The notes beneath the pieces are model-generated. The model was not told the DNA's origin and searched no databases. It was given only the letters and a program-made list of their open reading frames with translations. The translations under genes were made by a program, and so were the position numbers. From Patescibacteria group bacterium (GTDB taxonomy: Bacteria > Patescibacteriota > JACPGU01), in contig JBAYUK010000002.1 in assembly GCA_041675145.1 (NCBI GenBank), positions 88,530 through 152,529 of the forward strand: a stretch of DNA of 64,000 nt, in the 5' to 3' direction. Below are positions 16,164 to 17,735 of this stretch, in pieces (within the stretch, counting starts at the first letter, position 1; the number at the start of each line of letters is the position of its first letter).

Positions 16164-17735
16164 ATGGAGAGCAAAGAAATAAAAAAAGACATTTTCGCAG
16201 AGAACAATCAAGCAGAAGCGCCTAAAAAGATAGAGCTAACTATCTCGGGTGACCAAACTTTTTTTACCAAACAAGGTGAGGGTGTGAATGCTGGAAAGCC
16301 TGCTGTTTTTCTCCGTCTCCACTATTGTAACCTAGATTGTACATGGTGCGATACGCCTTATACATGGAACAAGGAGATGCCAGAATTTCATGATGAAAAA
16401 GAGAAGTGGAATATAGAAAAAACGACACAAAGAATCAAAAAGTCCTGGGATGAAGGTATGGAACAAAGAAAGCTCGTTTCCCAGATAAGGGTCGGATCAG
16501 AGATACAGCCACAACGAACAGAGGAGCCGACGCTGGTAATTACAGGTGGGGAGCCAATGGTTCAGCAGAAACGTTTGGTAAACTTAATTAACCAACCCGA
16601 ACTTAGTGGTTGGCACATCGAAATAGAGACAAACGGTACTATTAAGGTACCAGAAGACTTTCCAGATGTTCAATTTAATTGCTCACCTAAACTATCAAAC
16701 TCAGGATTAGAAAAGAGTAAAAGAATCAACGAAAAAGCACTCCAAAGCCTTATAAATAGAGACACAAATTTTAAATTTGTTGTAGAAGAAGAGAAGGATA
16801 TTGACGAAATAGTTAAAGACTACCTCCCGATATTGAAAGGTATTTCAAGAGATAAGATATATATCATGCCCCAAGGGGATACAGCAGAGAAGCTTGATGT
16901 GATCAAAGGAGTTATTGAGGATAGAACCAGGCTAGAAGGTTTTAATTTGAGTGATCGTTTGCAGGTCAGAGAATATGGTAGTCAGAGAGAGTCTCATGCT
17001 ATTAATAGGCCCAGAACAATTCAACTGAATGACTATGATTCTCTTGCCGAAAGGTACAGACAGTCAGACATAAAGCCAGATAAGCAATACTCAATGTTAC
17101 CTACAATCCTTAAGATGGCTGGGAACTTAAACGGAAAGAGGGTCTTAGATCTTGGGTCAGGGAATGGCTTTTTTACGAAAGAGTTCTCAGTGGGAGGAGC
17201 AGATAAGGTTATTGGAATTGATAATTCGATAGAACAGATAAACTTAGCGACGAAAGATCAGCCAGGGAATGTGAAATACATCCTCGGAGATATATTCAAA
17301 GATTTGTTTCCAAAATCAGATATAATTTCCGCTCCATATGTCCTTAACTACTCTGATAGTAAAGAACAATTATTTGATCTGTACAAGAAAATATATAACT
17401 CTCTTGCTGATGAGGGTAAGTTCATTGCTATTGTCGACCTTCCTGAGGGCAGGGATTTAAAGAGGTTTGGTGCAGAAAAGACTGTTATTGGCGGCATGGT
17501 TGATGAGGCACGGCTACAGATTGATCTTTATAATGATGACAAGTATATTTGTACGCTTAACTCTGTCTACTATACTCCAGAGACAATAGAGGAAGGGTTA
17601 AAAAAAGCTGGATTTAGTCATGTGGAGTGGATTAAGCCTGTTATTTCTGAAGAGGGTAAGAGTAGGTTGGGAGTGGAGTTTTGGGAGGGTTACTTAGATG
17701 GTCCAGAGCTTGGTTATATTGAAGCAACTAAATAA
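16164..17735 (+). CDS. Fusion protein: N-terminal QueE-like radical-SAM domain (7-carboxy-7-deazaguanine synthase family) plus C-terminal class I SAM-dependent methyltransferase domain.
   Basis: N-terminal 'TKQGEGVNAGKPAVFLRLHYCNLDCTWCDTPYTW', 'ITGGEP' and 'ETNGT' match QueE-type motifs. The C-terminal half has methyltransferase motif I 'VLDLGSGNGFF' and motif post-I 'VIGIDNS'. It is a single uninterrupted ORF of 523 aa. Confidence 0.7.
   Translation: MESKEIKKDIFAENNQAEAPKKIELTISGDQTFFTKQGEGVNAGKPAVFLRLHYCNLDCTWCDTPYTWNKEMPEFHDEKEKWNIEKTTQRIKKSWDEGMEQRKLVSQIRVGSEIQPQRTEEPTLVITGGEPMVQQKRLVNLINQPELSGWHIEIETNGTIKVPEDFPDVQFNCSPKLSNSGLEKSKRINEKALQSLINRDTNFKFVVEEEKDIDEIVKDYLPILKGISRDKIYIMPQGDTAEKLDVIKGVIEDRTRLEGFNLSDRLQVREYGSQRESHAINRPRTIQLNDYDSLAERYRQSDIKPDKQYSMLPTILKMAGNLNGKRVLDLGSGNGFFTKEFSVGGADKVIGIDNSIEQINLATKDQPGNVKYILGDIFKDLFPKSDIISAPYVLNYSDSKEQLFDLYKKIYNSLADEGKFIAIVDLPEGRDLKRFGAEKTVIGGMVDEARLQIDLYNDDKYICTLNSVYYTPETIEEGLKKAGFSHVEWIKPVISEEGKSRLGVEFWEGYLDGPELGYIEATK

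Follow-up and report, generated by a model that had tools for sequence, protein, structure and literature searches.

Why does a bacterium of the Patescibacteria carry, in one reading frame, a domain resembling QueE and a methyltransferase, and what could such a protein make? The question is raised by a gene in a stretch of 64,000 nucleotides, hereafter the window (contig JBAYUK010000002.1, positions 88,530 to 152,529), from a metagenome-assembled genome labelled 'Patescibacteria group bacterium'. The original prediction, made from the letters alone, described its product (MFA7308996.1; Table 1) as a fusion of a QueE-like radical S-adenosylmethionine (SAM) domain with a class I SAM-dependent methyltransferase. 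This description holds, as there is a single open reading frame (ORF) of 523 amino acids and both assignments are borne out by NCBIfam and Pfam. On balance, we favour the view that its two domains form a genuine bifunctional enzyme of 7-deazaguanine metabolism, which would make 7-carboxy-7-deazaguanine (CDG) and N-methylate a 7-deazaguanine base. 7-Deazaguanines are precursors of queuosine and archaeosine in tRNA, of anti-restriction modifications in the DNA of phages and bacteria, and of nucleoside antibiotics. Both domain families are known; the fusion and the link of a whole methyltransferase family to deazaguanine genes appear to be undescribed.

The two domains of the fused protein

The fused gene begins with an ATG 12 nt after the stop codon of an upstream gene for a valyl-tRNA synthetase (ValRS)-like protein, a gap that suggests co-transcription of the two, and runs through 523 codons in one frame with zero internal stops or frame changes. 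Contigs from NCBI, ENA (ERZ27247358, k141_1391779) and Logan, with lengths of 366, 300 and 26 kb, carry the gene for this same protein. Across the 21.6 kb of the ENA locus and the 11.7 kb of the Logan locus that were compared, identity to the window is 100%; the three copies are therefore separate assemblies of one population and not independent organisms. GC content, GC content at third codon positions (GC3) and codon usage of both halves match those of the other genes in the window (cosine 0.886 and 0.891; mean 0.886, standard deviation 0.036), making a chimeric join or a very recent transfer unlikely, and there is no homopolymer at the domain junction. A frameshift hiding two separate genes, which had been named as a possible refutation, was rejected because the halves share one frame, have complete domain boundaries and show native codon usage. 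Judged by sequence, both domains are intact members of their own families.

The N-terminal half belongs to the QueE family according to its sequence, motifs and predicted fold. All five QueE models of NCBIfam outrank every other model for this half (E 5e-24 to 4e-14), its sequence matches in the PDB are the QueE proteins of E. coli, B. multivorans and B. subtilis only, and Pfam gives weak Radical_SAM/Fer4_12 matches at residues 37-160. The motifs quoted in the original prediction are all present, namely QGEG (37-40), C55-x3-C59-x-W-C62-D-T-P-Y-T-W, ITGGEP (126-131) and ETNGT (155-159) and, in the other half, VLDLGSGNGFF (327-337) and VIGIDNS (349-355). In E. coli QueE (EcQueE), Q13, E15 and R27 bind the substrate, C31, C35 and C38 the cluster, T40 the Mg2+ ion, and G94, S136 and Q189 SAM (PMC11142719), with Arg27 forming a salt bridge to the substrate carboxylate (PMC5347944). 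The residues reached by the alignment, all of them kept, are Q37, E39, R51, C55, C59, C62, T64, G129 and S174, the counterparts of these residues from Q13 to S136 in the same order. Thus, the three cysteines and the Mg and substrate residues that remained to be checked (C55, C59, C62, T64, Q37, E39 and R51) proved to be conserved. In an alignment with 161 intein-free QueE homologues, across which C55, C59 and C62 are invariant, the fused protein keeps 40 of the 40 columns that are at least 85% conserved. The GGEP, ETNG and SPKL blocks are likewise present and conserved. Of the two spacings in which the QueE cluster motif occurs, Cx3Cx2C and Cx14Cx2C, the fused protein has the first.

The AlphaFold2 model of this half (56 homologues in the alignment; the halves were modelled separately) has a predicted local distance difference test (pLDDT) score of 89 and a predicted template modelling (TM) score of 0.87. 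In a Foldseek search, ranks 1 to 6 are taken by QueE structures (E 1e-10 to 5e-8; target-normalised TM 0.66-0.73). The next fold match, PFL-AE (E 3e-6), was rejected as the fold of this half since it ranks under every QueE structure, and the sequence models of NrdG, PFL-AE, viperin and twitch-domain proteins were rejected at 25-31 bits against 85 for QueE (NrdG/PFL-activase E 1e-4 to 1e-7). A better match to another radical-SAM family such as NrdG or PflA, the second refutation that had been considered, was therefore not found, QueE being best by profile and by fold.

The NCBIfam QueE scores of the N-terminal half (85-88 bits) lie below the equivalog cut-offs of 200-300. Since the relatives P0163, P0003, P0006 and P0016, which are located within folE-queD-queE-queC clusters, score equally low (77-86 bits), the low score is a property of an unmodelled QueE clade and not of a divergent fused protein. 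The nearest relatives examined are 39-49% identical to the QueE half, and every one lies in a cluster with QueD, FolE and QueC: PTPS-FolE-QueE-QueC in locus L012, QueC-NUDIX-x-PTPS beside QueE-FolE in L003 and L004, and a phage cluster PTPS-QueE-QueC-FolE in L006 and L007. The clade is abundant in viral contigs (at least 564 matches). Its insert of about 53 residues, also present in the nearest relative P0163, is predicted to form a long helix (84-108) and a low-confidence loop, and is located where EcQueE carries the E45-W67 insert (PMC11142719), which is shorter. Compared with the solved QueE structures (E. coli 6NHL, B. subtilis 5TH5/5TGS, B. multivorans 4NJG), the N-terminal half shares QGEG...R, Cx3Cx2C, the Thr Mg ligand, GGEP, ETNG and SPKL. 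Although these structures are its best fold matches, identity is just 18-23%, and it differs from them in belonging to a clade outside the NCBIfam equivalog models and in having a C-terminus that continues into a second domain.

Two observations on this clade were made in passing. The preQ0 clusters L003:5175-10672, L004:5242-10670 and L012:1772-6056 encode an unusually long QueC (386-400 aa) and a NUDIX hydrolase; those of L004 and L012 also include a GT2 glycosyltransferase, and those of L003 and L004 a radical-SAM/SPASM protein, a histidine phosphatase and StiP. Their gene content suggests pathways, as yet uncharacterised, to 7-deazapurine nucleosides or glycoconjugates. Furthermore, many QueE homologues of about 400-630 aa (P0021-P0023, P0025, P0034, P0035, P0046, P0047, P0065, P0072, P0074-P0076, P0084) contain inteins (Hint/LAGLIDADG) inside the radical-SAM motif that corresponds to window positions 16326-16355. 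In most of them, the third cluster Cys is the +1 residue ('...CxW / C-intein...HN / CDTPY'), and in the others it is the Mg-ligand Thr ('WCD / S...HN / TPYTW').

The C-terminal half is, by sequence and model, a ToxA-like class I N-methyltransferase, not a ToxA orthologue. The Pfam families Methyltransf_31, _25, _23 and _11 pass their cut-offs within residues 309-486, and residues 291-511 match XrdM (8rdl, E 5e-24) and B. glumae ToxA (5jdz, E 6.5e-19) in the PDB. The AlphaFold2 model (pLDDT 96) superimposes on ToxA (5je1) with TM 0.82-0.85 and a root-mean-square deviation of 2.6-3.2 Å and on XrdM with TM 0.69-0.79, the next structure reaching about 0.65. Mutagenesis has identified as important in XrdM/ToxA the Tyr7 of a mobile N-terminal segment, aromatic residues 14 and 112, His/Asn115 and Tyr116, and catalysis requires a mobile lid made up of the first ~23 residues (10.1101/2024.01.12.575338). 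Y291, Y298, Y392, N395 and Y396 align with positions 7, 14, 112, 115 and 116. The C-terminal half thus shares with ToxA (toxoflavin N-methyltransferase, 5JE1) and XrdM (xenorhabdin amide N-methyltransferase, 8RDL) the two-subdomain class I fold (TM 0.84), the N-terminal segment with its Tyr7 equivalent and the aromatic/Asn/Tyr substrate triad. ToxA methylates N6 and N1 of an azapteridine-dione and XrdM a ring amide nitrogen, and by analogy the shared chemistry would be lactam N-H methylation in a small bicyclic heterocycle. Differences are the structure-based identity of 24-25%, the 7-deazaguanine genes that form its neighbours and fusion partner, and a lid that is tethered and not free. No toxoflavin (toxBCDE) or dithiolopyrrolone cluster genes were found in the window or in 20 contexts of the family.

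The true orthologues of this half are stand-alone proteins of about 240 aa (e.g. P0121-P0154, Uhrbacteria A3C17_02365), 46-58% identical along their full length, with one at 35%. In the family alignment, identity is 44-58% to 37 members and 38-42% to four more. Conservation across 41 stand-alone homologues reaches 90% or more in 54 columns, and the fused protein agrees with 53 of these; the sole deviation is S332 in the GxGxG motif, a Cys in all 41. Hosts are Saccharibacteria, Paceibacterota, Berkelbacteria, Nomurabacteria and Uhrbacteria, together with one archaeal-looking contig. The latter encodes the 44%-identical family member P0155 (JGI 3300072015) along with archaeal-type L1, L10 and acidic P proteins and TYW1 and may be of DPANN origin. 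Thus the family, although found almost entirely in Patescibacteria, also extends beyond them. Since no member was found in viral contigs, whereas the QueE clade is abundant there, a phage origin of the methyltransferase is not supported.

Gene neighbourhoods of the methyltransferase family

Independently of the fusion, the methyltransferase family is tied to genes of 7-deazaguanine transport and synthesis. About 20 lineages of the family had usable context, and in eight of them, the QueE fusion included, there is direct linkage to a 7-deazaguanine gene, in at least five independent arrangements. A YhhQ/Vut_1 gene adjoins the methyltransferase gene in five loci, divergently and 44-64 nt apart in L009, L013, L014 and L069, and directly upstream on the same strand in L016. 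The two YhhQ proteins that were scored (L009 and L016) reach 122-123 bits against the cut-off of 51 of the NCBIfam 'queuosine precursor transporter' equivalog, and E. coli YhhQ is an importer of preQ0 and preQ1 (PMC5372724). A QueD/PTPS homologue is the neighbour in L017 (80 bits) and L070 (102 bits; QueD cut-off 89). In L016, the methyltransferase gene is followed after 4 nt by a gene for a 112-aa T-fold protein that matches only QueF (Pfam E 1.9e-4), QueF-II (NCBIfam E 1e-5) and the archaeosine synthase QueF-L (5jyx, E 0.004).

As a control, about 110 loci (~1.2 Mb) with unrelated methyltransferases, returned by the same pattern searches, contain no Vut_1 or PTPS match. As a rough estimate, at least five independent juxtapositions in about 17 lineages, at an assumed chance of ~1% each, correspond to P ~ 1e-6. 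The ties of the methyltransferase half to deazaguanine genes are our main reason for regarding the fusion as functional. The original prediction had argued from the premise that genomes of the Candidate Phyla Radiation (CPR) typically lack queuosine synthesis; that such bacteria stand outside deazaguanine metabolism is not supported by the CPR loci in which the stand-alone methyltransferase adjoins a YhhQ-type transporter, QueD or a QueF-like gene. The stand-alone members in Patescibacteria (loci L008-L016, L021, L069, L070) differ from the fusion in being free-standing and in having Cys for S332, and many lie beside YhhQ or QueD.

The cleanest stand-alone context is L016:9287-11045 (Berkelbacteria RIFCSPLOWO2_01_FULL_50_28, MEZX01000003.1), a tight YhhQ-methyltransferase-QueF-like operon with gaps of 6 and 4 nt. 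A conserved alternative context occurs in L141:5285-6708 and L138:5328-6714 (Uhrbacteria-type), where a 221-235-aa protein without NCBIfam match (weak Methyltransf_11 in one) is encoded directly before the methyltransferase, and a cytidine deaminase and a Peptidase_S51 protein are found nearby, upstream in the Uhrbacteria loci and downstream in L138-L140. The other contexts either are uninformative or hold Ham1/ITPase (L011), deaminases of cytidine or dCMP (L138-L144), or a NUDIX protein with a histidine phosphatase (L021). These neighbours were set aside as a functional clue, since they fit nucleobase and nucleotide metabolism in general and are too unspecific. A search for preQ1 riboswitches near the YhhQ/methyltransferase pairs and the QueE clusters with Rfam returned tRNAs only.

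The join, the proposed function and its rivals

An HMMER scan of 1.84 billion representative proteins gave 12,541 matches. None of the best 150, apart from the entry of the query itself, covers both halves, each spanning either ~20-276 or ~285-523, and a search of 5.8 billion proteins likewise found no other protein with both. Neither a fusion of QueE with a methyltransferase nor a ToxA-like methyltransferase linked to YhhQ turned up in the literature searches, in agreement with the original prediction, which knew of no description of this architecture. QueE joined to another enzyme of its own pathway in a single polypeptide is seen in relatives fused to QueD (P0066) and to QueC (P0085). In these, however, the partner is N-terminal and the QueE C-terminus free, whereas MFA7308996.1 has at its C-terminus a partner that does not belong to the known enzymes of the pathway. 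Elsewhere in the QueE family, extra domains are N-terminal or inteins only. Among 198 homologues that reach the region, 182 end at the equivalent of S277, 12 one residue later and four slightly earlier, and none extends further.

The join itself consists of seven residues (CAT GCT ATT AAT AGG CCC AGA), at which AlphaFold2 confidence drops. A joint full-length alignment for structure prediction was discarded, as it misplaced QueE homologues onto the methyltransferase half. In the alignment, T285 (ACA) takes the place of the first Met of the stand-alone methyltransferases, and an AGG is located 7 nt upstream of this ACA. In sequence, the linker resembles what was once a spacer between two genes, with a one-time stop codon, an AGG before the former start and T285 in place of the former Met. 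The simplest, if speculative, history would be the loss of stop and start codons at the junction of a queE/methyltransferase operon.

The following scheme would account for these observations. The N-terminal domain would be a working QueE, in which, given the strong homology, C55, C59 and C62 would hold the [4Fe-4S] cluster that cleaves SAM. Q37, E39 and R51 would bind 6-carboxy-tetrahydropterin (CPH4), with Mg2+ held by way of T64, and a radical ring contraction would yield CDG. What the methyltransferase acts on, and any coupling of the two domains, is our inference: family chemistry and gene context suggest that the C-terminal domain, with a second SAM, may methylate a lactam-type ring nitrogen of CDG, preQ0 or preQ1. 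The stand-alone orthologues of Patescibacteria would carry out the same methylation on bases imported by the neighbouring YhhQ. Supply of CPH4 would require folE and queD elsewhere in the genome. The seven-residue tether joins the substrate-contacting tail of QueE to the catalytic N-terminal lid of the methyltransferase; it could favour direct hand-over of the base or could hinder QueE. That CDG rather than preQ0 or preQ1 is the substrate, and that it is channelled via the tether, is speculation on our part.

A broader proposal, which we put forward tentatively and consider doubtful as yet, is that the ToxA-like methyltransferases of Patescibacteria form a new family making ring-N-methylated 7-deazaguanine (N-methyl-CDG, -preQ0 or -preQ1). 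The fusion would channel fresh CDG and the YhhQ-linked enzymes would use salvaged bases, as a new deazapurine branch specific to ultrasmall episymbiotic bacteria. We know of no ring-N-methylated 7-deazaguanine metabolite or nucleic-acid precursor. To our knowledge, methyltransferases acting on 7-deazaguanines are of two kinds only, neither of which is known to be related to the C-terminal half. HuiC O6-methylates preQ0 in the biosynthesis of huimycin, encoded by an actinomycete cluster (10.64898/2026.04.15.718813), and DpdM, a DUF3109 metal-binding protein, N-methylates dPreQ1 in phage DNA (PMC10516641). Both are natural precedents for methylated 7-deazaguanines and neither is QueE-fused or YhhQ-linked; DpdM acts on DNA and has a fold unrelated to that of the C-terminal half.

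Several points weigh against a two-domain deazaguanine enzyme, a reading whose weak spots are its singleton status, the blocked QueE C-terminus and the source of CPH4. The fused chain runs 246 residues past S277, unlike the 198 QueE homologues. Since C-termini are fixed at this position, and the C-terminal tail of B. multivorans QueE hydrogen-bonds the substrate in molecular dynamics (PMC8124187), the extension might, by analogy, impair QueE instead of helping it. As the fusion is a singleton with all copies from one population, selection for the fused state is not demonstrated. No queC, queD or folE lies nearby, as the original prediction had noted: across the window, tblastn found nothing better than E 0.3 for these genes or yhhQ, and Pfam scans of every large ORF revealed no que-type genes, queF and tgt included, but housekeeping genes only. 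Around 12 of the 20 methyltransferase-family contexts contain no deazaguanine gene, and the QueF-like matches in L016 lie under every curated cut-off, with the catalytic Cys region aligned. This methyltransferase is absent from 86 QueE loci (80 viral) and QueE from the stand-alone methyltransferase loci, and the two as separate neighbours were rejected.

Such points are taken furthest by the view that the fusion is accidental or neutral, the result of a recent stop-codon loss in one lineage, leaving domains that act independently or a crippled QueE with no channelling or shared pathway. The single occurrence with identical copies (best 150 matches inspected), the spacer-like linker, the otherwise fixed and substrate-contacting C-terminus of QueE and the lack of que partners in the window would all fit. 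We nevertheless regard it as unlikely, because nearly all conserved residues are kept in both domains and the methyltransferase family is joined elsewhere to YhhQ, QueD and a QueF-like gene. Given these independent associations, even a recent merger would have united genes that were already adjacent, co-oriented and of one metabolic theme. Less probable still is a methyltransferase substrate outside the deazaguanines, such as a pterin like CPH4, a canonical purine or pyrimidine, or some small molecule of another kind, the neighbours then reflecting nucleobase salvage. The contexts with Ham1/ITPase, deaminases, and NUDIX plus histidine phosphatase point in this direction, as does the natural substrate of ToxA, an azapteridine, and adjacency to QueD would also fit a pterin or a DpdL-like CDG decarboxylase paralogue (PMC10516641). 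Nevertheless, the commonest neighbour is a transporter of preQ0/preQ1 type (five loci, one with the QueF-like gene too), and the fusion partner QueE yields CDG.

The original prediction had itself suggested that the QueE-like domain may have taken on another kind of radical-SAM chemistry, acting outside the deazaguanines on some other nucleobase or a cofactor, with methylation to follow. The scores of about 85 bits against cut-offs of 200-300 in all five NCBIfam QueE models, the 53-aa clade-specific insert, the unique C-terminal extension and the absence of que neighbours from the window would agree with this. However, bona fide relatives from canonical folE-queD-queE-queC clusters score as low, the CPH4-, Mg- and SAM-binding residues are kept along with all 40 conserved columns, and the fold is nearest to QueE, so that we consider such a recruitment very improbable. 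We give hardly any credence to an assembly or sequencing artefact with false read-through of two genes. All evidence does come from a single metagenomic population, but the NCBI, ENA and Logan sequences agree, and the junction shows neither a homopolymer nor a break in frame, domain boundaries or codon usage.

The family-level link in Patescibacteria is the main new result, as a testable lead to a new deazaguanine derivative; the fusion by itself is a curiosity. The metabolism of Patescibacteria is largely deduced from absences, and the context of the methyltransferase provides a concrete hypothesis there. The fusion is also a natural experiment, being the only QueE found without a free substrate-contacting C-terminal tail, and could be used to probe the importance of that tail. 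Should the coupling prove fortuitous, the finding would shrink to a one-off fusion of two known families.

Further features of the window

Table 1. Features at and around the fused gene, in window coordinates.
Feature	Position	Strand	Basis
ValRS-like class I aminoacyl-tRNA synthetase, 713 aa, upstream of fused gene	14010..16151	+	Pfam/ORF
Whole fused gene, 523 aa + stop (NCBI MFA7308996.1)	16164..17735	+	ORF calling
QueE (7-carboxy-7-deazaguanine synthase) domain, residues 1-277, ending at S277	16164..16994	+	HMMs, alignment, AlphaFold2 model
Substrate-binding segment Q37-G-E-G...R51, equivalent to E. coli QueE Q13, E15, R27	16272..16316	+	alignment
Radical-SAM cluster motif C55-x3-C59-x2-C62, then D63, T64 (= EcQueE Mg2+ ligand T40)	16326..16355	+	alignment
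Clade-specific ~53-aa insert, between cluster motif and ITGGEP strand	16368..16526	+	alignment, model
Seven-residue linker H278-AINRP-R284	16995..17015	+	alignment, model
ToxA/XrdM-like class I SAM-dependent N-methyltransferase domain, residues 285-523	17016..17732	+	Pfam, PDB matches, model
SAM-binding motif I D329-L-G-S-G-N-G335	17148..17168	+	alignment
Palindromic A-run/T-run hairpin, 13 bp stem, between fused gene and convergent tRNA-Met genes	17735..17764	.	sequence

The fused gene is preceded in the window by genes for a MurC-like ligase, PolA, HolA, FemAB, TsaD and the ValRS-like protein, which is short and apparently lacks the usual C-terminal extension. It is followed by tRNA genes, DivIC, a Fic/AbrB pair, SpoIID, S15, PNPase, RNase J, FtsK and RecA/RecX and, further on, by pyruvate kinase, DnaG, RpoD, a glycosyltransferase/O-antigen-ligase cluster and RNase Y. 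Two tandem tRNA-Met(CAT) genes (17772-17941) are convergent to the fused gene, and the hairpin in between is a likely bidirectional terminator.

A tRNA-Ile gene with the anticodon TAT (UAU) is located at 18453-18528 on the minus strand. Such a tRNA-Ile(UAU) is rare in bacteria and usually implies decoding of AUA without lysidine/TilS. Since the gene overlaps the annotated start of the DivIC-like ORF (17965-18477), this start has probably been placed wrongly. At 18593-19215 on the minus strand, with two genes counted downstream from the fused gene, a Fic/Doc-like toxin (127 aa, faint Pfam match) is encoded together with an upstream AbrB/MazE-type antitoxin (77 aa).

At the beginning of the window (249-5952, plus strand), a PrgI-family protein and a 690-aa TraG/VirB4-like P-loop ATPase are encoded among ORFs without Pfam matches, a gene set that resembles the conjugation-type type IV secretion genes of Patescibacteria. 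At 36846-43249 on the plus strand, a 1248-aa protein without Pfam match is followed by three proteins of about 290-300 aa, among them one that matches dockerin-like and another that matches cohesin-like domains; together they may form a cell-surface assembly.

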